A DNA stretch of 64,000 nucleotides from Planctomycetota bacterium (GTDB lineage Bacteria; Planctomycetota; B15-G4), in NCBI GenBank assembly GCA_038212275.1, contig JBBQUR010000007.1, positions 160,440 through 224,439 of the forward strand, read 5' to 3'. Positions 3,021-46,840 of the stretch are shown here, piece after piece (positions within the stretch are counted from its first letter, which is position 1; each line of letters begins with the position of its first letter). Under the pieces are notes generated by a model, which did no database searches, was not told the origin of the DNA, and worked only from the letters and a program-made list of their open reading frames with translations. The position numbers were made by a program, and so were the translations under genes.

Positions 3021-3833
3021 TCAGGGCTGCAGCGCTCCCGCAGGCGCGTTCAGCCCCCAGTCGTAGGGGCGATAGCGCACCGGCGCGCCGACGGGCAGCT
3101 TGAGGTCCGGTGCCTGCGTGGCGATCCAGCGCACCGGGTCCGGCGGGAAGTCCTCCGCGTACCACTCGAAGATCTGCGAGAGCACGATCACGCCGTCGTC
3201 CACGTCCACGTTGCTCGGCTCGTGCAGGAAGCGGCTCGTCTGCGCCGCGAGCTGCTGCTGCAGCGCCACGCCGGTGTACGGCACGCGCGCCAGCACCGGA
3301 CAACTGAGGCTCCCGCAGTTCAACTGCATGTGGACGCGCGGATCGTGGAAGCGCCCGCGGATCACGTCGTTCTCGAGGTCGTACAGGTTGATCTCCGAAC
3401 CATCGAGCTGGAAACAAGTGAACCAGAAGAAGTCGTATTTGTGGTCGGCGACGGACTCCAGCCGCGGCCGGCTCAGCACGTTGAAGAGCACGAGAGCGTT
3501 GTAGGCGTTGAGGTAATACGCGAGGCGGTCGTCGTTGGTCGGGTAGCGCTCGGGCGTGGTGACCGGCCCGGTCAGCGCGAGCCGCGCGACGCAGCGCTCG
3601 AGCGGTGCCCGGCGGCCGGCGAGCGCCGCGTAATCGACCCGTCCGTCTTCACCCACGTCGGCAGCGAGCAGCGCGCGCCAGTCCGAATCGTCGGTGGCAT
3701 CGCCTTCCGCCGGCGGCTGCCGGGCGAGGCGCTCCTTCTCCTGCGCCAACACGCCGGCCGGCGCCGTCAGCGTCGTGTAGCAGCCGGTGCCGGACGCGGC
3801 GCACAGCAGTGCCAGAGTGAACAGGCTTCGCAT
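3021..3833 (-). CDS. DUF547-domain exported protein (probable lipoprotein)
   Basis: Signal peptide with GC lipobox-like end; DGRVDY, LAYYLNAYN, DPRVHMQLNCGSLSCP, LSQIFEWYAEDF and YDWGLN are DUF547 hallmarks. Confidence 0.85.
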   Translation of the reverse strand: MRSLFTLALLCAASGTGCYTTLTAPAGVLAQEKERLARQPPAEGDATDDSDWRALLAADVGEDGRVDYAALAGRRAPLERCVARLALTGPVTTPERYPTNDDRLAYYLNAYNALVLFNVLSRPRLESVADHKYDFFWFTCFQLDGSEINLYDLENDVIRGRFHDPRVHMQLNCGSLSCPVLARVPYTGVALQQQLAAQTSRFLHEPSNVDVDDGVIVLSQIFEWYAEDFPPDPVRWIATQAPDLKLPVGAPVRYRPYDWGLNAPAGALQP

Positions 3834-5317
3834 CAGGCCTCCGTCGCGACTCGCGCGCGCAGCTGCTGGTTGGCGGATGGGCGGACGGGCACGCTCGCGT
3901 CAGGGTCGGGCGAACTCGCAGCGTGCGCACGCCGCTGCTGCGCGAGGCTGGCGGCGCGGCGCCGCCCCGTCGCGTTGAAGGCGCACATCGAGACCAACTC
4001 GCCGTCGACCGGCACGCGGAACGTGCACGCGGCGAGGCGCTCGCGCCCGCGCTCCGTGGCCAGCTCATCGGCATCCATGAAGCGGTGTACCACGATCGTC
4101 AACGGGCGCGCCGACCATGCGCGGCGCGTCAGCATCGCGCCCAGCAGTCGCAGGGTCAGGGCGCGCTCGCTCCAGAGCCGGCAGGCCGCGTAGGCCGGCA
4201 GGTCGAGCAGCAGCCGCGGATGGCGCACGAGCCGGCCGCAGAGCCGCGCCAGCGAGACGGCGCGCCGCTCTCCGATCGGGTTGTAACCCGCGAGTCCGCC
4301 GAGCAGCACGCGCTCGATGAACCAGCGGTCGAGGCGCGAGCCCGCGCGCAGCCCCTCGACAACGTGCTGCCGGCCGGCCAGCGTGACGACCAGCAGCGGC
4401 GTGATACTCGTGCAGTCGGCGTGACCGAAGGGCACCGCGCGCGGATCGAGACGGCGACCGATGCCGGCCTCGATGGCCGCCCACAGCGCGTCCGTCTCGG
4501 GCTGCGGCCCTGGCGTCCCGGTGGTGCCCGGCGAGTCGAGGGGTGCCGCGGCGCGGGCAAGCGTCTGGAGGACGCGCGTGCGCCCGACCTGCGCCACGGG
4601 CTGGAAACTGGCCATGCGGTAGACGTCGGCATTCGCGAGCAGCCAGCGCAGCACGTCCGGGACGTCGCCGAGGTTGTCTGGCGTCACGGTGAGCGTGTGC
4701 GCCGCCTGGAGCGGCACGCCGGTGACCGCCCGCGTCCGTCGGAGCAATGCCGCGAACTCCTCGCGCAGCGGATTCAGATCGGCCTCGCGCTGTCCGCGCC
4801 GGAGCCCGCGTCGCCCGTGCTGCGTCGTGTCGATGTGCGTGGCCATCCGTGTCAACCCGCCCTCGCGCACCAAGCGCTCCAGGTACGCGGGGTCGTCGCG
4901 CAGCACCTCGCCATTGGTCATGAGCATCGGGTTGAGCTGCACCGCGCGGCAGTAATGCAGCAGGCGCAGGACGTCCTGCACGGGCAGCAGCGTGAGCTCG
5001 CCGGCCGTGAGCTGCACGTTGCCCCACGGCCCGAGGTGCGCGCGCAGCGCGTCGAGTTGCTCACGCACCTCCGGCCACGGGAGCGGCGGCGTGTCGTTGG
5101 CCTCGGTCCCGAGGTAGCAGGCCGCGCACGTGAACTGGCAGCGCTCCTGCACGCCCCACGTGGCCCCGCAGCCAGCCGTGTGCCGGCCGATGAACTGCCC
5201 GGGTTCTTCCCGCACGCCGGCGGGAAGGTGTGCAGCAGCGGCGGCCACGGCCTCGCGCTCGCCCGGCAGTGCGGGCTCTCTCAGCGCGTGAAGGACTTGG
5301 CGCAACCGGGCGAACAT
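3833..5317 (-). CDS. Radical SAM protein
   Basis: CQFTCAAC (CxxxCxxC), QLTAGE, MTNG; extra C-terminal Cys (HADC; ACTFRVPVDGELVSMCAFN). Start taken at MFARL (5317); stop overlaps the DUF547 start. Confidence 0.85.
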   Translation of the reverse strand: MFARLRQVLHALREPALPGEREAVAAAAAHLPAGVREEPGQFIGRHTAGCGATWGVQERCQFTCAACYLGTEANDTPPLPWPEVREQLDALRAHLGPWGNVQLTAGELTLLPVQDVLRLLHYCRAVQLNPMLMTNGEVLRDDPAYLERLVREGGLTRMATHIDTTQHGRRGLRRGQREADLNPLREEFAALLRRTRAVTGVPLQAAHTLTVTPDNLGDVPDVLRWLLANADVYRMASFQPVAQVGRTRVLQTLARAAAPLDSPGTTGTPGPQPETDALWAAIEAGIGRRLDPRAVPFGHADCTSITPLLVVTLAGRQHVVEGLRAGSRLDRWFIERVLLGGLAGYNPIGERRAVSLARLCGRLVRHPRLLLDLPAYAACRLWSERALTLRLLGAMLTRRAWSARPLTIVVHRFMDADELATERGRERLAACTFRVPVDGELVSMCAFNATGRRRAASLAQQRRAHAASSPDPDASVPVRPSANQQLRARVATEA

Positions 5318-5486: not shown

Positions 5487-7200
5487 TCACGGCACAGCCG
5501 CGCGAAGCGCGTTGCTGATCGCGAAGCCGCACACTGCTGCCGTGTCGGGAACAACGCACTGGAAGTAGATGCAGAGTCCTGAGGCGCCTGCGGGCCACGA
5601 TGACCAGAGAATCGCGGCTGATCCCGTGCTGGTGGCGATGATGAGGGGGCTGTTCGGCAGGCCGGAAAACGAAGGCACCAAGGTGCCGCACTTGAAGGGC
5701 GTCAGCGTGCTGCCGGTCGAGGCGAACAGCAGCGAGAGCGGCGCAGAAGCTGCATGGGTCAGCTGGATCGAGCCGGCCGAGCCCGCGGTGAGCGGCCCCG
5801 TGCCGGCGAGCAACGGTGAGCCGTTCACGCCGGGGAGGGCATGTCCGAGATCCGTCCACACCGACATCGCTGCGGGTGGCACGCTGGCGATCGTGTCCTG
5901 GATCCAGGTCTGGTGCGCCGACACGCGGGTGAAGATGGTCGGATAGGTCGTCGAAGGCGCTCCCTGATCCAAAGCGTGGAACGACGCCATGCCGACCAGC
6001 GCGGGGGCCCCCGACTCGATGGCGAACAGCGGGCCCTTCACGTCGGCGCACGTCAGGTCCGTCACGCCGATGTGCTCGTCAGAGATGGCCACTCCTGCCT
6101 GACCAGTAGGAGGCAGCCTCGGCATTGGAGACAGCGGTGCCGACCTCGACAGAGAGCAATGGAGCGGGCACCGTGTACCACGGCATGGTCAGCGTCTCGC
6201 CGACGTGGTTGTTCAGCGGGTCGCCCAGTGAGGCAACGGGCGCGGACGTCGGCAAGCCGAGTCCGAGCAGGGCAAGATTGCCGGTCGCCGGGTCCGTGGC
6301 GTCAAACGGAAATGGATCCGGTGGCAACGAGAACGCGATGCTCGTGACCGGAATACACGAGTTGCCGTCGAAGACGACCAGGTCGGAGGCCACCATCCCG
6401 TCCACGTCGAGGCCCACGGCAAGCACCCAGCGCTCATCGATCACGACGCCGTTGGTGATGAATCCCGAACTGGTGGCGGTGGCAGGACGCACCTGGACGA
6501 CGGAAGGCCAGAACGCCGGCGGATAGGTCGGGAGTGAGCTGACACACGCACCGGTCTTGCCCGTATTGAGCAGGACGGTGAGCTTGGCGTAGAGCGAAGT
6601 TGCCACGAGATCGAGGCAGCCGTCTCCGTTCAGGTCACCGACGGCCACCGATTTGGATTGGGCATTCGTGCCGATGCCGAACTTCTTCATGGCCTCGAAA
6701 CTTCCGGTGCCCTTTCCGGGCAGCACGGAGGCGCCGCCCGAGAAGTTTCCCGTCACGATGTCGAGGTTGCCGTCGCCGTCCATGTCGCCCAGCGTCACCG
6801 AAAGCGGCGTGTCGCCGACGCTGACGGTCGACATGGGCCCGAAGTTTCCCGTACCCGTTCCAAGCAGGACGGCAACTCCCTGGGCGAACAGGTAGTTCGT
6901 CGCCACGACGTCAAGGTGTCCGTCGCCGTTCAGATCGCCGAGCGCAACCGAGCGGGGATACAGGCCGGCGTCGAACGTGGCGAGCGATCCGAATCCGCCC
7001 GTGCCTGTGCCAAGCAGGACGGAGATGCTGCTCGCCGCGTCGTTCCCCGTCACGGCGTCGAGCACTCCGTCTTCATCGAGATCTCCCAATGCCATGGAGA
7101 ACGCGCTGGCGCCGACACTCGCGTTCATCGCCGGCCCGAAGCTCCCCGTTCCCGTGCCAAGCAGCGCACTGATGTCGTTCGAGAGGAGGTTCGCCGCCGT
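5487..7200 (-). pseudogene. Disrupted secreted protein: FG-GAP repeats + trypsin-like pseudo-protease + conserved C-terminal domain (frameshift near 6095, 5' end missing)
   Basis: ORF 6079..7128 has GDLDEDG/GDLNGDG/GDMDGDG repeats then trypsin-like IDERWVLA and NLALLGL. ORF 5487..6125 continues in another frame with CADVKGPLF, IFTRVSAHQTWI and WTDLGHAL...NAL. The repeat pattern extends upstream to about 7200 (TAANLLSNDISALLGTGTGSFG) and stops without a signal peptide. Confidence 0.75.
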
Positions 7201-34810: not shown

Positions 34811-34867
34811 CGTCTCCGCCGGAGCGAGTTCCCGGTGACGCGCCCCATCCCGGACGGAAAGCCTTCG

Positions 34868-37588
34868 ATGCCTTCGCACCCGTTTCCTGCCGCCCGTCGT
34901 CTCACGGATCCGCCCCGCGACGCGACACTGCGCGCGCCGGGCGCGCGCGTGGCGGTGCTCGCATCCCTGCTCCAGCTCTTCGGCGCGTCGCTTGCCTTGC
35001 CATCGCTCGGCCTGGCGCTTGCACTTCCCTTCGCGTTGCCGGCCTGCGCGTCCTATCCGACCCTCGTGAAGGACGGAATGCCGCTGCCCACGGAGAACTG
35101 GATCTCGGAGGAGGATGAAGAGGAGTCCTCCGAGAGCCGCAAGAAGTGGTTCGAAGAGTTGCACCGCTCCGCACCGGACGTCGACTGGAGGCTCATCGAG
35201 CGACGCAACGGCGAACAGCAGCGCGAGAAGCGCAACCAGCTCGCGAGCATGGCCGCAGTCTCCACCCGCTGGAGCGAGGTCGGCAGCCGCAACCAGGCCG
35301 GGCGCATGCACGTCGTCGCCATGGCGCCGGACGGGCAGTCGCTCTACGCCGGCTCGGCGCTCGGCGGCGTGTGGCACGGCACGCTCGACGGGCACGACTG
35401 GACCCCGCTGGGCGACAACATCTACGGCGGCGCGCATTTCCTTGCCGTGGTTGCGGGTGCGCAGCCCGGCGCCCCCGACGTGGTGCTGCGCGCCACCGAG
35501 GACGGCCTCATCCACGTCACGCGCGACAACGGCGCGACCTGGCAGCAGCCCACCGGCGTCAACGCCGTGAATTCCGTGCGACGCGCGCTCGTGCGCGCCG
35601 ACGGCAGCGGGACGATCTTCCTCGTCGCGCGCTACGCCGACACCTTCGGCGTGCAGCGATGGGCGCTGTACCGCTCCACCGACGCCGCGCTGTCCTTCCA
35701 GCGCGTCTTCATCATCGGCACGGCGGCCGGCGATGCGTGGGTCTCGCGCACCGGTCCTTCGCCCGTCTGGGTGCTGACCGGGAACAAGCTCCGCATCAGC
35801 AACAACGACGGCGACACCTTCACCGACGTCTCGTCGCTGCCCGTCACCACGACGGCCGGCGAGCTGGCAGGCAGCGAGGCCGGCGCGCCGCGCTTCTGGG
35901 CGGCGCTCGACGTCGGCGGCACGCGCACGCTGTATCGCTCGGACAATGCGGGCCTGAACTGGAGCTCGGTCACCCAGCTGACCGACTACTGGACCGGCTC
36001 CGTGAACGCCTCGATCGTGAACGCGGACCTCGTGGCGTACGGGGGGCTGGAATGCTTCCGCAGCGCCAATGCGGGCGCCAGCTTCACCAAGGTCAACACC
36101 TGGTCCGACTACTACGGCGACGTGGTCAACAAGCTGCACGCGGACATTCCCGGCATCGACGTGCTGCCGAACGGCGCGGGCGGCGAGTTCTGGTACGTGG
36201 ACACCGACGGCGGCCTTTTCCTCTCGACGAACGGACTCGTCAGCGTGACCAACCTCTCGCTGAACGGGCTGCGCGTGAGCCAGTACTACACCACGCTCAC
36301 GTCGGCTGCGAACCCGCTGCACGTCGTGGCCGGCGCGCAGGATCAGGGCTACCAGCGCGCTTCGGCGGCGTCGTCCGATCCGGGCGGCACGCTGCTCGAC
36401 TTCGCGCAGATCATCAGCGGCGACTACGGCCACGCGACGTCGGGCGACGGCACGCACGCCTTCGTGTACTCCGTCTACCCGGGTTTCGTGCTCGTCCAGA
36501 AGGGCGAGGGACTGCCGCAGCTGTATCAGGTCGATTTCCCTTCCGCCGAAACCTACAGCTGGCTGCCGTTCATCCTGGCTGATCCGCTCAACAACCAGCG
36601 CTTCTTCTTCTGCGCGTCGCACCTGTACCGCTATGTGAAGTCGGGGCCGTCGGCGTGGATCCCGTCGCAGTGGTCCACGCAGAACTTCGCGGCCGGCAGC
36701 GGCGAGCACCTTGCTGCCCTGGCGTACTCGCCGCTCGACAAGCTGCGCATGTACGGAGTCACGAACAACGGGCGCTTCTTCCGCAGCAGCGACCAGGGCG
36801 TCACGTGGGCGCAAGGCACCGGCAGCGGCCCCGGGCCGCAGTACCTGTACGGACAGGCGATCGTCGCGAGCAACCAGGACATCAACACCGCGTACGTCGG
36901 CGGCAGCGGCTACAGCAACCCGGCCGTGTGGCGCACCACCGATGGCGGCGTGACCTGGCAACCGTGGAGCGACGGCCTTCCTGCCACGCTCGTCTACTGC
37001 ATGGCGCAGGCGCAGGACGGCAGCGGCGCGCTCTTCGCCGGGACCGAACGTGGCTGCTTCCGCCGCGACCCGACCTCCGCGGCGTGGGTGGACATCACGA
37101 GCAACGAGGCGCCGATCACGGTCTACTGGAGCGTGGAGTCGGTGCCGTCCAGCCACGTGATGCGCTTCGGCACCTACGGTCGCGGCATCTGGGACTACAG
37201 CCTCGACGACCCGTGTACCTACGAGGCCCACGGCACCGGCCTGGGCGGCAGCAACACCGTGGTGCTCGACAGCGGCTCCACGACCCACATCGGATCGACG
37301 CACACGCTGAACATCAGCGGCGCGCCGCCGTCGCTGGCCGGGGCGCTGCTCTACTCGCCCTCGCCGGCGAGCATCCCCTTCAAGGGCGGCACGCTGCTCG
37401 TCGACGTCGGCCTGCTGCTTCAGATCCCCGTCTCCACCAACGGAAGCGGCGCGGCCAGCCTGCCGCTCGCGATCCCGAACGACCCGCTGCTCGTCGGATT
37501 TCCGCTGAACTTCCAGGCGGCCTTCAAGCAGGGTCCGAGCGGCCCGTGGGCGTTCAGCAACGGGCTGACGGCGACGCTCTGCCCCTAG
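34868..37588 (+). CDS. Secreted BNR/Asp-box (VPS10/sialidase-like) beta-propeller protein with C-terminal beta domain
   Basis: Repeated SxDxGxTW boxes (TRDNGATW, SDNAGLNW, SSDQGVTW, TTDGGVTW), LHAD, GAQDQG, TYGRGIW; long signal/lipoprotein-like leader. Start uncertain. Confidence 0.82.
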   Translation: MPSHPFPAARRLTDPPRDATLRAPGARVAVLASLLQLFGASLALPSLGLALALPFALPACASYPTLVKDGMPLPTENWISEEDEEESSESRKKWFEELHRSAPDVDWRLIERRNGEQQREKRNQLASMAAVSTRWSEVGSRNQAGRMHVVAMAPDGQSLYAGSALGGVWHGTLDGHDWTPLGDNIYGGAHFLAVVAGAQPGAPDVVLRATEDGLIHVTRDNGATWQQPTGVNAVNSVRRALVRADGSGTIFLVARYADTFGVQRWALYRSTDAALSFQRVFIIGTAAGDAWVSRTGPSPVWVLTGNKLRISNNDGDTFTDVSSLPVTTTAGELAGSEAGAPRFWAALDVGGTRTLYRSDNAGLNWSSVTQLTDYWTGSVNASIVNADLVAYGGLECFRSANAGASFTKVNTWSDYYGDVVNKLHADIPGIDVLPNGAGGEFWYVDTDGGLFLSTNGLVSVTNLSLNGLRVSQYYTTLTSAANPLHVVAGAQDQGYQRASAASSDPGGTLLDFAQIISGDYGHATSGDGTHAFVYSVYPGFVLVQKGEGLPQLYQVDFPSAETYSWLPFILADPLNNQRFFFCASHLYRYVKSGPSAWIPSQWSTQNFAAGSGEHLAALAYSPLDKLRMYGVTNNGRFFRSSDQGVTWAQGTGSGPGPQYLYGQAIVASNQDINTAYVGGSGYSNPAVWRTTDGGVTWQPWSDGLPATLVYCMAQAQDGSGALFAGTERGCFRRDPTSAAWVDITSNEAPITVYWSVESVPSSHVMRFGTYGRGIWDYSLDDPCTYEAHGTGLGGSNTVVLDSGSTTHIGSTHTLNISGAPPSLAGALLYSPSPASIPFKGGTLLVDVGLLLQIPVSTNGSGAASLPLAIPNDPLLVGFPLNFQAAFKQGPSGPWAFSNGLTATLCP

Positions 37589-37757
37589 AGCGACGCCCTG
37601 CCCCCCGGAGGCGGCGCGCTTCTGCCATGGCACTTGTCATGGCCTTTTAAGAACCTCTTAGGTGCCCTGTGAACGCCCGCGCCTCCTCTGGCGGCATGGT
37701 GGTGACGCGTCGCCGAAGCGACCGCCGCAGGGCGCGATGAGCGGGGCGGAGCGGCGT

Positions 37758-37791
37758 GTGCAACTTCGTGCGACTTCGTGCGACTTCGTGC
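37758..37791. repeat. 10-bp tandem repeat (GTGCGACTTC x about 3.4)
   Basis: gtgcaacttcgtgcgacttcgtgcgacttcgtgc. Confidence 0.85.
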
Positions 37792-37832
37792 GGCGTGACG
37801 GCAGGAGCGGGCCGGGGGCGCGGGCCCCTTGC

Positions 37833-37885
37833 TTTTGAGATCAACTCTCATTACAAAACCGCCCCACGTTGCGTGTCAGTCTCAA
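37833..37885 (+). promoter_or_regulatory. Fur/iron-box-like inverted repeat upstream of the porin operon
   Basis: TGAGA-tcaac-TCTCA dyad (37836-37850) in an AT-rich patch, plus a second half-site GTCTCAA at 37879-37885. Confidence 0.55.
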
Positions 37886-37904
37886 TTCAGGACCTTCCCG
37901 AGCC

Positions 37905-39395
37905 ATGCCCACTGTCCCCCGCGCCCTTTGCAACCCCCGCCCCGTCCAAGCCCGCCACGACTTCGGCCGACCGCCGACACGTCTCCCGGGGCCAGCCGCG
38001 CTGGCGCTCCTGGTACTGGCGCTGGCGCTGGCGCTGCCGACCCACGAAGCCCGGGCCCAGCAGACGCAGGAGGGCGACAAGGCGGCGCAGGACGCGGCGC
38101 AGCAGGCCGCCGCGCAGTACGAGGCCATGCGCCTCCAGATGGAGACGCTCACCCGCCAGGTCCTGGACCTGCAGCGCACGACCGCCGAGCTGCAGCAGGA
38201 GCTGAAGGAAGCGCGCTCCGCGGGAGCCGCGCCGTTCCCGGACCCCGACGAGTTCTACATCCCGCGCCTCGCCCGGGACTTCGAGGCCACGGGGCTGCCG
38301 GACAACTTCGGGAGCACCTACACGAAGCCGTACCTCACGAACCTCGGCAAGCGCACCTACCTCGGCGGCTACATCGACCTCGAGTTCAGCGACACCGCCG
38401 GCAGCAAGGACAAGTCCTTCGACCAGCCGCACTTCGTGCCGTTCATCTACGCCGACGTCTCGGAACGGGTGAAGGTGTCCACGGAGATCGAGTTCGACAA
38501 CGGCTCCGAAGTGGAAGTGGAGTTCGCGCAGATCGACTACCTCTTCAACGAGGCCGCCAACCTGCGCGCCGGCATCCAGCTGTTGCCGCTCGGCAAGTTC
38601 AACGAGGTGCATGACTCCCCCATCCAGGAGCTGACCGCGAGGCCGCTCGTGGACCGCTACATCATTCCCACCACGCTGAGCGACGTGGGCATCGGGCTCT
38701 ACGGCAATCTGAGCGAGGAGACGAGCTACCAGTTCGCGGTCACCAACGGCTTCAAGGGCCTGCTCAACAACGGCAGCAATGCGATCACCACCTCCGAGGG
38801 CCTGAAGAACGCGGCGCCGCAGGCCGACGAACTGGCCGAGCCCTACGAGAACATCAACAACAAGTTCGCGTACACGCAGCGCGTGGCGTGGCAGCCGGAG
38901 CTCGGCATGGAGTTCGGCGCCTCGGCGCTGTTCGACACCTACGACGAGGCAGGCAAGAACTCGCTCAGCATCTACGCGCTCGACGCCACCGTGGACGGCA
39001 AGGCGGTGGACTACCTGCCCGACGCGATGCAGCTGCTCGGCGAAGCCGCATGGGCGGACGTCGAGCGCGACGCCTTCGCGCACGACAGCGGCGTGGCGGG
39101 CGACATGAGCGGCTGGTATGCGCAGGCCAACTGGCGCGTGGACCCCGAATGGCTGACCCGCTGGAAGCAGGACGGCACGCTCGAGCAGGATGCGCACTTC
39201 ACCTTCGTGACGCGCTACGACGCCGTGATGCTGGATACCTACAACATCAACCGGACCACGTTCGGCGTGAACTTCCGCCCGAACGAACACGACACCGTCT
39301 TCAAGCTCGACTACCAGTTCAACAGCGACAGCGGCTCCGACGCCGGTCTCAACGATTCCAACGCCCTGCTCTTCTCGGTGGCGACCTACTTCTGA
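37905..39395 (+). CDS. Outer-membrane beta-barrel (porin-like) protein with N-terminal coiled coil
   Basis: Signal peptide ending ARA-Q; coiled coil; alternating amphipathic strands (LGGYIDLEF, TEIEFD, EVEFAQIDY, VFKLDYQ); terminal VATYF BAM-type signal. Start uncertain. Confidence 0.8.
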   Translation: MPTVPRALCNPRPVQARHDFGRPPTRLPGPAALALLVLALALALPTHEARAQQTQEGDKAAQDAAQQAAAQYEAMRLQMETLTRQVLDLQRTTAELQQELKEARSAGAAPFPDPDEFYIPRLARDFEATGLPDNFGSTYTKPYLTNLGKRTYLGGYIDLEFSDTAGSKDKSFDQPHFVPFIYADVSERVKVSTEIEFDNGSEVEVEFAQIDYLFNEAANLRAGIQLLPLGKFNEVHDSPIQELTARPLVDRYIIPTTLSDVGIGLYGNLSEETSYQFAVTNGFKGLLNNGSNAITTSEGLKNAAPQADELAEPYENINNKFAYTQRVAWQPELGMEFGASALFDTYDEAGKNSLSIYALDATVDGKAVDYLPDAMQLLGEAAWADVERDAFAHDSGVAGDMSGWYAQANWRVDPEWLTRWKQDGTLEQDAHFTFVTRYDAVMLDTYNINRTTFGVNFRPNEHDTVFKLDYQFNSDSGSDAGLNDSNALLFSVATYF

Positions 39396-41224
39396 ACGCG
39401 CGCGCACTCTCGCTGCTGTTTCCCGCGCTGATGGCGCTGGCGCTGCTGGCCGAGGCGCCACGCGCCCAGGACGACAGCGCGACCGTCTACCTGGACAAGC
39501 GCGCGGCGCTCGAGGCCGTGTTCCCGCACGCCGCGCGCGTCGTCGAGCTGCGGCACCTGCTGTCGGCCGGCGAGGCCGCCGCGATCGAGGCGCTCACCGG
39601 CAGGAGACTCGACGAGGGCGGCTTCTTTCTCTACGCCGCGTTCGGTGCGCCGGGAGCCGGCGCGGAGCCGCTCGTCGGCGAGGAGCCCACGGCCTGCGCG
39701 GTCATCGTCGCCGAGGTCGGCAAGGTGCGGCCCATCACGCACATCGTCTCGGTGAAGCCCGACGGTACGGTGGGCCGCGTCGCGGTGATGATCTACCGCG
39801 AGAGTCACGGCGCCGATGTCGCCTCCGAGCGCTTCATGGCGCAGTACGCGGGCAAGTCGCTCGCCGATCCGCTGCGCATCGACCGCGACATCATCAACAT
39901 CGCGGGCTCCACGCTGTCAGGTCACGCGATCTGCCGCGGCGTGCGCAAGGCGCTGGCCGTGGTGCAGGTCGTGCTGCGAGACGTCACGCCGGCCGAGCGC
40001 GCGGCGCTGCTCGCGGGCGGCGTCGACGTGACGCCGGAGCCGGGCGCGTCCGACCGCCCCGAGGACACGACGCGCGTGGAGCGCCTCGCGCCAGGCCGGC
40101 TGCGTGCCGAGCGCGTCATCATGGGCAGCGCCTGCAGCATCGAGGCCTACGCCTTCGGCGTCACACCTCCCCGGGACGCCGCGAGTGCCACGGAAACGAC
40201 CGGCGCGACGAGCGCCGCGGGCACATCGGACACATCGAGCGCGACGAGCGCGACGCCCTCCGTGAGCAGCGCGCTCGCGACCGATGCAGCCGCCGAGCCG
40301 ACGCTCGAAGCCGCGCTGCGCGCTGCGCTCGACGAGATCGCTCGCTGGGACGCCGTGCTTTCCGACTGGCGGCCGGACACGCCGCTCTCGCGTCTCAACG
40401 CAGCACCCGTCGGCGAGGCGCAGCCGCTCGACCCCGACCTCGAGGCGTGGCTCGCGGACAGCGCGCACTGGCACGAGCTCACCGGCGGCGCCTTCGATCC
40501 CTCGGTGGGCGCGCTCGTCGCCGCGTGGGGCCTGCGCACGCAGGCTCCCTCACGGCCCACGCCCGACCGGCTCGCGCATGCGCTCGCAAACAGCGGCTGG
40601 ACGCATCTGCACCTGGATGAAGCGGCCGGCACCGCACGCCGCGACACGGACGACCTGACCCTGGACCCCGGCGGCTCGGGCAAGGGCTGGGCGCTCGATC
40701 GCGCGGCGGAGGTGCTGCGCGCGCGCGGCGTGCGCAGCGCGCTGCTCTCCTTCCGCAGCACGCTCCTCGCGCTCGACGCGCCGCCGGGCGAGCCTGGTTG
40801 GAGCGTGCCGGTCGTCCACGACGGCAGCGGCCGTACGGAGGAACTCGTGTCGCTGGTGCAGGGAGCCCTCTCGGTGAGTGGCGGCGGCTTCTCGGTGTTC
40901 GACGACGTGCCGACTGCCGGCGCGGAGGGCAGCGCTTCCGGTGACGCCGACGTTCCTGTACGCCGCGGACACGTGATCGATCCGGAAAGCGGCGTGCCGG
41001 TCGAAGCCGGCCGACTCGCATGGGTGCAATGCGAACACGCGGCCGGCGCCGACGCACTTTCGACGGCGCTGCTCGTGAGCGGCCCCGCGCTGCCCGCCGT
41101 GCCAGGAGCCCGCGGCGCATTCGTCGCGCACGCCGACGCGGCGGTCGAGGCGTGGCCCGCGCCAGCGCCAGCGCCAGCGCCAGCGGGAGCGCCAGCGGGA
41201 GCGGACAAGGATCGCCGCCCGTAG
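39392..41224 (+). CDS. Exported FMN-binding domain fused to ApbE FAD:protein FMN transferase
   Basis: FMN_bind: EVGKVRPIT...IYRESHG...DIINIAGSTLS. Ser/Thr/Ala linker. ApbE: IMGS, LSDWRPDTPLSRLN, TGGAFDPSVG, DPGGSGKGWALD, SVSG, HVIDPESG, ADALSTA. Start is CTG 39392 (CTGA overlap) or ATG 39431. Confidence 0.88.
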   Translation: MNARALSLLFPALMALALLAEAPRAQDDSATVYLDKRAALEAVFPHAARVVELRHLLSAGEAAAIEALTGRRLDEGGFFLYAAFGAPGAGAEPLVGEEPTACAVIVAEVGKVRPITHIVSVKPDGTVGRVAVMIYRESHGADVASERFMAQYAGKSLADPLRIDRDIINIAGSTLSGHAICRGVRKALAVVQVVLRDVTPAERAALLAGGVDVTPEPGASDRPEDTTRVERLAPGRLRAERVIMGSACSIEAYAFGVTPPRDAASATETTGATSAAGTSDTSSATSATPSVSSALATDAAAEPTLEAALRAALDEIARWDAVLSDWRPDTPLSRLNAAPVGEAQPLDPDLEAWLADSAHWHELTGGAFDPSVGALVAAWGLRTQAPSRPTPDRLAHALANSGWTHLHLDEAAGTARRDTDDLTLDPGGSGKGWALDRAAEVLRARGVRSALLSFRSTLLALDAPPGEPGWSVPVVHDGSGRTEELVSLVQGALSVSGGGFSVFDDVPTAGAEGSASGDADVPVRRGHVIDPESGVPVEAGRLAWVQCEHAAGADALSTALLVSGPALPAVPGARGAFVAHADAAVEAWPAPAPAPAPAGAPAGADKDRRP

Positions 41225-41269
41225 TCGGCAGCGACACCGGAAAGCCCGCTGCGGCATGATGTCCAGCTG

Positions 41270-41869
41270 ATGCATTACCTCACGCGACAACGCCTGCACC
41301 TCTCGCGCTTCCATCCGCTGATGAAGGTGCTGCTCTCGCTCTACATCCTGAGCGTGGCCGGCGGCGTCTGGGTGGCCACGCTCAAGTACACGGACCGCGC
41401 GAGCTGGTCGTCGGAGGGCGCCAGCCTCTACATCGCGGGCAGCGCTCCCGGCAGCGGCGCGGGAAGCCCGGAGGCCGACCCGTTCCGCGACCCGCTGGGT
41501 GGCACGGCGGAAGGCATCGCCAGCGTCGAAGGCCTCTCGCGGCGGCAGCTCATCGACATCGTGCATCCGCACCTCTTCACCGTGCCCATCGTGCTCTTCA
41601 TCCTCGGGCACCTGCTGCACCTCACGCGCCTGCCCGACAAGCTGAAGCTCGCGATCAACGCCGGCGCCTTCCTCTCGTTCTTCGCCACCTTCCTGCTGCC
41701 CTTCGCGATCCGTTCACAGGCCACGCTCGCCCCGCTGATGATCGCGTCGGGCAGCGTGATGCTGCTGAGCTTCGCGCTGCTGTGCATCATCCCGCTCTGG
41801 GAGACGTGGCTCGGCAAGCCGGGCGCGCACGACTTCGACGCGCTGCCGCGGCGGGAGCCGAAGGCCTGA
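41270..41869 (+). CDS. Four-TM membrane protein with intramembrane His residues (candidate heme-b/metal-binding)
   Basis: TM1, an acidic/Gly loop, then VHPHLFTVPIVLFILGHLLHL and two further TM helices. Confidence 0.7.
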   Translation: MHYLTRQRLHLSRFHPLMKVLLSLYILSVAGGVWVATLKYTDRASWSSEGASLYIAGSAPGSGAGSPEADPFRDPLGGTAEGIASVEGLSRRQLIDIVHPHLFTVPIVLFILGHLLHLTRLPDKLKLAINAGAFLSFFATFLLPFAIRSQATLAPLMIASGSVMLLSFALLCIIPLWETWLGKPGAHDFDALPRREPKA

Positions 41870-41948
41870 CCCTCCCGCGATGCGCAGAGGCGTTCGCGCA
41901 CGACGTGCTTCGCTCCTCCGGATCACGCACGGCGACCGCCGCGTCGCT

Positions 41949-42329
41949 TCAGCCCAGCCCGATGCGGTCCAGCCCGTCCTCGTCGAAGCCCAGGCAGTGG
42001 CCCAGCTCGTGGAACAGCGTGATGCGGATCTGCTCGCGCAGTTCCTGGCGCGTGTCGCAGGAGTCCTCGAGCGGGCCCTGGAAAATGTAGATCACCGCCG
42101 TCTCGGGCGGCGCGTCGGTGCTGTTCCACTGCGCCATCGGCGGGCCGACGAAGAGGCCCATGAGGTCGTCTGCCTCGCCGTCGTCGCCCACGGTGTCCAG
42201 CAGCTCGTCGCTCGGCCACGGGTCCACCACCACCGGCACGAAGTCGAGCACCTCGCGGAACACGTCCGGCAGCGACGCGATCGCCGCCTGCAGCTCCTTG
42301 TCGAACTCGCGCTCCGACATCCGCACCAT
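41949..42329 (-). CDS. Minimal zincin-like metallopeptidase family protein
   Basis: DLMGLFVG, IYIFQGPL, ITLFHELGHCLG (HExxH). Confidence 0.85.
   Translation of the reverse strand: MVRMSEREFDKELQAAIASLPDVFREVLDFVPVVVDPWPSDELLDTVGDDGEADDLMGLFVGPPMAQWNSTDAPPETAVIYIFQGPLEDSCDTRQELREQIRITLFHELGHCLGFDEDGLDRIGLG

Positions 42330-43727: not shown

Positions 43728-43731
<4 letters not shown>
42379..43731 (+). CDS. MFS transporter
   Basis: SFFADISSEM, GRSSDR, DRVGKGLRGSPRDALI, GRAFGFHRAMD, GRLSDRVGR; 12 TM helices. Confidence 0.9.

Positions 43732-46840
<3,109 letters not shown>

Follow-up and report, generated by a model that had tools for sequence, protein, structure and literature searches.

That electrons can leave the cytoplasm by way of flavinylated periplasmic proteins has been recognised only recently. 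In the article texts of two studies, the membrane partners listed for ApbE-flavinylated proteins are NapH-like, MsrQ-like, PepSY-like, DsbD, Nqr/Rnf-like, DUF4405 and FezC proteins; several of these are tied to iron assimilation, and the known flavinylation systems require a membrane electron-transfer partner (Meheust et al. 2021, PMC8238504; Huang et al. 2024, PMC11334425). The iron-assimilation clusters in those texts (PepSY-like/FoxB, MsrQ-like, and P19-FTR1 with a gene for a protein binding flavin mononucleotide, FMN) combine ApbE, an exported FMN_bind acceptor and a membrane partner with links to iron transporters or Fur, and are proposed to reduce iron in the periplasm (PMC8238504, PMC11334425). 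We analyzed a 64,000-nucleotide stretch (the window) of the genome of an uncultured planctomycete (assembly GCA_038212275.1, 4.65 Mb, 91% complete; contig JBBQUR010000007.1, positions 160,440 to 224,439), which holds a locus with the same set of elements. Three co-oriented, closely packed genes at 37833..41869 encode a porin, an FMN_bind-ApbE fusion and a protein with four transmembrane helices (the 4-TM protein; helices TM1 to TM4), and a dyad lies ahead of the porin gene. Unlike the clusters of those texts, the locus has a membrane partner outside all the listed classes, a dedicated core porin instead of a TonB-dependent receptor, and the acceptor and ApbE on one polypeptide. We regard the unit as a variant of the flavinylation-associated extracytosolic redox systems for iron assimilation, particular in its partner from an uncharacterized family, its dedicated porin and its fused acceptor-transferase.

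The operon structure, the family assignments and the iron link of this unit are well supported by the sequences of the locus and its relatives. We give about even chances to the fuller reading, that the three genes form one conserved operon, likely Fur-repressed in iron plenty, and encode a predicted periplasmic flavin-based ferric reductase unit that feeds Fe(II) to FeoB. The features of the locus are as follows.

37829..37857, + strand: promoter-like region, read from the sequence, with a -35-like TTGCTT (37829-37834), a -10-like TTACAA/TACAAA (37851-37857) and the dyad in the spacer
37836..37850, no strand: operator dyad TGAGA-N5-TCTCA (box 1, TGAGATCAACTCTCA), a probable Fur-type box by conservation and placement
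37870..37884, no strand: second, weaker box (TGCGTGTCAGTCTCA), two mismatches, its centre 34 bp from that of box 1, weak alone
37905..39395, + strand: outer-membrane porin, 496 amino acids (aa), likely starting at ATG 37905; the open reading frame (ORF) is open from TTG 37869
39392..41224, + strand: exported FMN_bind-ApbE fusion, 610 aa from CTG 39392 or 597 aa from ATG 39431
39470..40036, + strand: RnfG/NqrC-type FMN_bind acceptor domain, residues ~27-215, from profile matches and motif
39911..39913, + strand: codon of Thr174, the predicted FMN acceptor in NIAGSTLS (residues 169-176), from conservation
40307..41086, + strand: ApbE domain (FAD:protein FMN transferase, PF02424; FAD, flavin adenine dinucleotide), residues 306-565, Pfam 157.8 bits
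41270..41869, + strand: 4-TM inner-membrane protein, PF27139 (Aq_1264_TM), 199 aa, from the labels of homologues and the model

The porin stop codon overlaps the CTG start of the fusion gene as CTGA, and a 45-bp gap precedes the 4-TM gene. The original prediction, made from the letters of this DNA, had described three co-oriented, tightly spaced genes behind a dyad, and we found every feature of that layout at its place. It had also recognized no PepSY, MsrQ, NapH or Nqr/Rnf partner in the operon; a Pfam scan likewise found none of these, nor DsbD. The three operon proteins had no Pfam or NCBIfam match to MsrQ/Ferric_reduct, NapH-like (Fer4_5), DsbD or Nqr/Rnf subunits, save rnfG at E 0.087 on the FMN_bind part of the fusion. 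An Rfam scan of 37400-42100 gave a sole, chance-level match (E 0.77) and no riboswitch.

The gene order is conserved among relatives. A scan with one genome per species yielded 17 loci, two of them (L006 and L007) without upstream DNA. All are labelled Planctomycetota or Phycisphaerales, except one labelled "bacterium" and one metagenome-assembled genome labelled Pseudohongiellaceae. The fusion gene lies upstream of the 4-TM gene in 15/15 loci that have upstream DNA, and the order porin, fusion, 4-TM gene is kept in all 12 loci that reach far enough, as well as in one with a partial porin. Chance adjacency of the three genes is ruled out by this conserved order. The flanks of the trio differ among loci (glycosyltransferases, BNR proteins, amine oxidases, phosphatases, response regulators), and the trio is therefore a self-contained block.

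We also scanned metagenomes for one distant subfamily of the 4-TM protein (motif THFHLF, ~30% identical to the window protein), which gave at least 393 confirmed stretches, of which 80 loci were kept. In 41 of these 80 loci the gene immediately preceding the 4-TM gene encodes an FMN_bind homologue, and in another 15 a porin gene separates an upstream FMN_bind homologue from the 4-TM gene, so that 56/80 have FMN_bind just upstream with or without an intervening porin. The upstream DNA was too short to judge in 14 loci, the upstream context was ambiguous in eight (five of them with a porin at the contig edge), and an FMN_bind homologue is lacking in two (L097 and L099). Pfam searches of 148 neighbour proteins from 25 long metagenome loci confirmed the FMN_bind gene adjoining the 4-TM gene. 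Homologues of the protein encoded at 41270 accompany FMN_bind almost without exception, as the original prediction requires.

The iron link comes from the dyad and from neighbouring genes. A dyad with at most two mismatches precedes the porin gene in 12/12 related loci, including loci ~40% identical in protein, and is exact in six of them. In relatives, a second box often lies 25-38 bp downstream of the first, and the layout TTGC/TTGA, dyad, TAcaa-like recurs in 15 boxes of related loci; a promoter consensus scan did not flag 37829..37857. The only other exact dyad in the genome lies 42 bp past the stop of its sole FUR-family gene and ~50 bp ahead of feoA-feoB, where Pfam confirmed both FeoA and FeoB_N. 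The unit is in this respect like Fur-repressed feoAB operons, since the same dyad precedes feoA in this genome. We take the TGA-N9-TCA geometry to resemble the 7-1-7 Fur box TGATAAT-N-ATTATCA, differing from it by symmetric T-to-G and A-to-C changes. Unlike the classic box, the predicted Fur box here has the half-site TGAGA, not TGATA.

Iron genes recur around related clusters. A FUR gene is directly upstream of the cluster in 4/25 metagenome loci, FeoB adjoins one (L082), and in genome G213 FUR is directly upstream of the porin and fusion genes. Paralogous FMN_bind-ApbE fusions with neither porin nor 4-TM gene are found directly upstream of a FeoA-FeoB fusion in genome G266 (L109, G266:C58), and between a P-type ATPase gene (HMA_2) and a thioredoxin-like gene with a Linocin_M18 encapsulin gene in L110-L112 (G087, G032, G169). 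These paralogues may represent additional iron systems linked to flavin. Iron control and a flavin-based periplasmic redox role are well supported by inference, because the dyad is conserved and shared with the fur-feoAB region and because iron genes flank related clusters. The earlier claim that the operon is iron-regulated is strongly suggested by this common dyad.

Other observations concern the dyad and its surroundings. In L109, from a 41%-GC planctomycete, an exact TGAGA-N5-TCTCA dyad lies at 6463-6477, ~800 bp ahead of the fusion-feoAB genes, where the surrounding DNA holds no ORF as long as 60 aa. A weight matrix built on the dyad found seven sites above 14 bits in the genome of the window, of which the iron-linked ones are those of this operon and of feoA; the remaining sites precede FG-GAP and methyltransferase genes or unknown lipoprotein genes, and the genome-wide scan defined no wider regulon. 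The 15-mer TGCGACGTATTCGCA occurs twice, 600 bp apart (G000:C8:3173, 3772), in a divergent intergenic region beside two unknown exported proteins. Immediately 5' of the window dyad, a GC-rich hairpin followed by a T-rich run (37814-37829) looks like a terminator, possibly that of the upstream BNR/sortilin-like gene (34835-37588). Some 40 bp 5' of the hairpin and dyad, at 37757-37795, a 12-bp unit (GCGACTTCGTGC-like) is repeated in tandem about three times.

The fusion gene is open from well upstream, and CTG 39392 is the sole start that yields a signal peptide. We infer this start, because the database gene call takes ATG 39431. The protein has an RnfG/NqrC-type FMN_bind domain, a Ser/Thr-rich linker and a full ApbE domain, in this order. 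The FMN_bind (PF04205) match over residues 113-188 scored 20.7 bits on the protein, against a cut-off of 22, and 24.9 bits in a six-frame search of the genome; stand-alone FMN_bind homologues score 27-44 bits. With the flavinylation motif defined as [S/T]GA[S/T], the acceptor site reads AGST in the window, AG[AS]T or SGAT in 14 other fusions, and SGAT in 22 stand-alone proteins, which bear the canonical DxxxSGAT. The acceptor Thr itself is invariant in 37/37 aligned FMN_bind domains. The ApbE match spans profile positions 12-248 of 266, and phmmer matched the fusion to 13 solved ApbE sequences (best E 4.4e-17). The proposal of one exported polypeptide with an acceptor domain and an intact ApbE agrees with these results, the motif and the ApbE both appearing intact, and it is plausible that the ApbE half flavinylates the acceptor domain of its own polypeptide.

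About 55 protein clusters have the same fused architecture over at least 88% of the query, and every named one is from Planctomycetota; the acceptor-transferase fusion is a trait of the planctomycete branch. The FMN_bind domain of the fusion is the only one that Pfam detects in the 91%-complete genome, and one other ApbE is present, joined or adjacent to a 3-keto-disaccharide hydrolase domain. This second ApbE (G000:C8:89117-92983, L018) shares a long open frame with the hydrolase (DUF1080-type) domain; the frame may be another ApbE fusion or an overextended ORF. A transferase and its acceptor domain also share a polypeptide in the trypanosomatid fumarate reductases. As described in the article text (PMC12052999), these eukaryotic enzymes, cytosolic or glycosomal, carry ApbE at the N terminus ahead of fumarate reductase, whereas the window protein is an exported bacterial one that runs from FMN_bind through the Ser/Thr-rich linker to ApbE.

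The porin has a signal-peptide-like N terminus, a coiled-coil helix (residues 57-105), a 16-strand barrel and the C terminus ...SVATYF. Its Pfam match to Porin_O_P (PF07396) is narrow, at 22.9 bits against a cut-off of 20.9. An AlphaFold model (28 homologues) showed 16 strands and a long N-terminal helix with a mean predicted local distance difference test score (pLDDT) of 78.4, and Foldseek matched this model to OmpU, OmpC, Omp32 and OprP (E 7e-13 to 6e-11, probability 1.00). The C-terminal residue is F or Y in 28/28 aligned homologues. The beta-barrel ending in F that had been predicted is therefore borne out by the Porin_O_P match, the 16-strand model and the terminus. The protein is like OprP/OprO-type and general trimeric porins (PDB 2o4v, 6ehb, 2j1n) in its 16-strand barrel and C-terminal aromatic residue. 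It differs from these porins in its borderline family match, its long N-terminal coiled coil and its own invariant set of Arg, Asp, Glu and Lys residues.

The 4-TM protein belongs to PF27139 (Aq_1264_TM), an assignment made indirectly through precomputed labels on homologues and Atlas clusters. The label is on 79/80 homologues (up to 92% identical), and PF27139 accounts for 99-100% of the nearest Atlas clusters. Searching 1.84 billion representatives with a profile recovered 358 members (E <= 0.001), and the family is present in 89/301 sampled genomes of the phylum (67/190 high-quality ones). The N terminus is predicted to lie inside, with an acidic loop on the periplasmic side and basic loops on the cytoplasmic side. 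Confidence in the monomer model is high (pLDDT 87.4; predicted template modelling score, pTM, 0.82). About half of the planctomycete matches to the 4-TM profile cover positions ~71-176 (TM2-TM4) only, inside longer frames, which suggests a related family with a different N-terminal part.

Four histidines, H99-P-H101 ... H114..H117, lie on one predicted helix, TM2, which has H99 and H101 at its periplasmic end and H114 close to the cytoplasmic one. Among 73 diverse members, H99 and H101 are present in 73/73, H114 in 64/73 (88%), an E or D at position 96 in 61/73 and W180 in 67/73. The most conserved positions of TM2 include H99, F103, P106, F/L110 and H114, a spacing of i, i+4, i+7, i+11 and i+15. 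Both membrane faces retain basic residues (position 19 in 73/73, 126 in 65/73, 148 in 42/73), and one subfamily has a third His nearby on TM3. The TM2 pattern would fit two cofactor sites along one helix, with a dimer needed for bis-His heme ligation, and, no less well, a metal site at the periplasmic edge. The earlier claim of four histidines in one helix stands as to their common helix, the invariance of H99 and H101 and the frequent H114, but not as to H117, which is not conserved in these members.

We propose the following mechanism. Iron shortage would derepress the operon, and the porin would let a small ferric chelate into the periplasm, this route being the presumed one. The ApbE half would move FMN from FAD to Thr174 in the FMN_bind domain of its own or a neighbouring molecule. 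The 4-TM protein would then hand electrons from the membrane, that is, from the quinol pool or the cytoplasm, to the flavin, perhaps via heme b at H99/H101 and H114 in a dimer. The reduced flavin would reduce Fe(III), and FeoAB, under the same operator, would import the Fe(II). An electron-conduit or heme role is the best single reading of the 4-TM protein, but it is unproven, and its main rival is metal binding or transport.

Several results weigh against parts of this mechanism. For the operator, the dyad count is at chance level: the window has one against 1.10 expected, and the genome has two exact dyads against 0.78 expected from base composition or ~2.1 from ten first-order Markov simulations. 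The significance of the dyad comes from its conservation and placement, not from its count. For the flavoprotein, the Pfam score of the FMN_bind part on the protein is slightly below the cut-off. The link among the genes also has exceptions. Fusions of FMN_bind and ApbE exist without the 4-TM gene, with a BNR protein in its place in G232 and G128. In G213 (L105, G213:C10), the FUR, porin and fusion genes are followed by an unrelated hydrophobic protein of 219 aa (3284-3940, - strand), not Aq_1264_TM, which had no Pfam match and an hhalign probability of 0.2% to the 4-TM family. None of the 80 distant-subfamily loci has an ApbE within 6 kb, and the transferase of that subfamily must therefore be encoded elsewhere. 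Finally, the genome carries one Ferric_reduct-type and one Fer4_5-type gene on other contigs, and electron donors other than the 4-TM protein are therefore possible. It has no PepSY_TM match at E <= 1e-10 and no DUF4405 match at E <= 1e-6, and in eight planctomycete loci that we examined, no PepSY_TM gene substitutes for the 4-TM gene.

The heme part of the reading meets the most objections. Foldseek returned no match for the 4-TM model at E <= 0.001, and VIA-align gave generic four-helix bundles only (Z <= 8.5). A sequence search of solved structures with the 4-TM profile found nothing below E 0.9, and an ESM Atlas search that excluded PF27139 gave no usable match. Against PepSY_TM (PF03929), a family with paired His for two hemes b, hmmscan found no match at E <= 0.1, and hhalign of the family with 12 planctomycete PepSY_TM proteins gave a probability of 0.5%. 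Against DUF4405 (PF14358), hmmscan found no match and hhalign gave 5.2% over 28 columns of TM2, aligning its two histidines. Conserved histidines are on one helix only, and because of this the heme-b reading needs an assumed dimer for bis-His ligation. Heme binding by the 4-TM protein is unsupported, as is the original identification of it as a heme-b electron donor in the form given; no sequence or fold link to known membrane cytochromes was found.

DUF4405 and FezC offer the nearest parallel. According to the article text, both are small helical membrane proteins beside flavinylation genes, with transmembrane histidines as their most conserved residues; heme binding has been shown for both, and FezC is modelled as a homodimer (PMC11334425). 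DUF4405 as described there has six helices and four central histidines, whereas the window family has four helices and two invariant histidines on one helix, and homology between them is undetectable. The terms porin, fusion, fused and Planctomycet are absent from the texts of PMC8238504 and PMC11334425; the eLife supplementary tables, which were outside the comparison, could list such clusters unnamed. A full-text literature search found no mention of aq_1264 and no description of such a unit, and in the literature searched the trio matched no characterized system, in line with the original prediction.

The strongest alternative keeps the iron-uptake module but makes the 4-TM protein a metal-binding inner-membrane component, either a ferrous permease or a receiving site. 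Iron would enter by the porin, be reduced by the flavoprotein and be imported by the 4-TM protein, with electrons from elsewhere. An HxH pair preceded by E or D is typical of metal sites, and here such a pair is invariant across the family, at the periplasmic membrane edge, with the acidic residue ahead of it in 61/73 members and the third nearby His on TM3 in one subfamily. The paralogous fusions adjoin transporters, not cytochromes (FeoA-FeoB in L109, the P-type ATPase in L110-L112), and the 4-TM protein shows no similarity to any cytochrome by Foldseek, VIA-align or hhalign. However, a 199-aa four-helix bundle resembles no known metal transporter either (Pfam, Foldseek, VIA-align), H114 and the basic residues at both faces suit cofactor binding at least equally, and the flavin would be left without an electron source in the operon. 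We consider this alternative unlikely.

A second alternative concerns the target. The Fur family includes PerR, Zur and Mur types, and the operon might be a Fur-family-controlled periplasmic redox system for something other than iron, such as repair of peroxide or oxidative damage, or copper or manganese. The cluster has AhpC/Redoxin or thioredoxin-like genes as neighbours in L052, L053, L060 and L110-L112, and L030 has a methionine sulfoxide reductase gene beside it. A PepSY_TM protein has recently been linked to copper delivery (PMC13038864). However, the operator is common to feoAB and stands next to the only FUR gene of the genome, and FeoB or FeoAB adjoins the cluster or its paralogue in L082 and L109. 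We think a target other than iron distinctly improbable.

That the 4-TM protein is a flavinylation accessory outside the redox chain, docking ApbE at the membrane or supplying periplasmic FAD, would account for two distant members (P0106, P0137) in which an additional hydrophobic segment links the protein directly to a fused ApbE, and for the need of ApbE for periplasmic FAD in an operon with no evident FAD exporter, but it seems very improbable, since the largest subfamily has the 4-TM gene beside FMN_bind, yet no ApbE within 6 kb, in 80 loci, the invariant histidines are not an obvious trait of flavin exporters, and a four-helix protein is small for an FAD carrier.

Two observations remain on the genes around the cluster. 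A conserved protein of 323-348 aa without a Pfam match is encoded downstream of the 4-TM gene in the Fur-linked loci L033, L042, L055 and L060, and could be an additional component of the system there. In the window itself, the ORFs at 43728-45191 (- strand) and 45143-46840 (- strand) may encode proteins of the Box pathway, their translations resembling benzoyl-CoA oxygenase component B and a dihydrodiol lyase.

Returning to the reading of the unit as a flavin-based ferric reductase, we suggest tentatively, and with somewhat less than even confidence, that Aq_1264_TM proteins serve ApbE-flavinylated periplasmic proteins as a new kind of membrane electron conduit or of redox-linked metal site. 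Together with the porin, they would form a TonB- and siderophore-independent system of reductive iron uptake, common among uncultured Planctomycetota and in other bacteria of soil and sediment, with a self-modifying flavoprotein in this lineage. If this is true, the unit adds a membrane partner from an uncharacterized family and a dedicated porin to flavin-based iron reduction, and gives a function to Pfam PF27139. The acceptor-transferase fusion is a compact test object for the specificity of ApbE, and TGAGA-N5-TCTCA is a candidate Fur box in a phylum whose regulation has been little studied.

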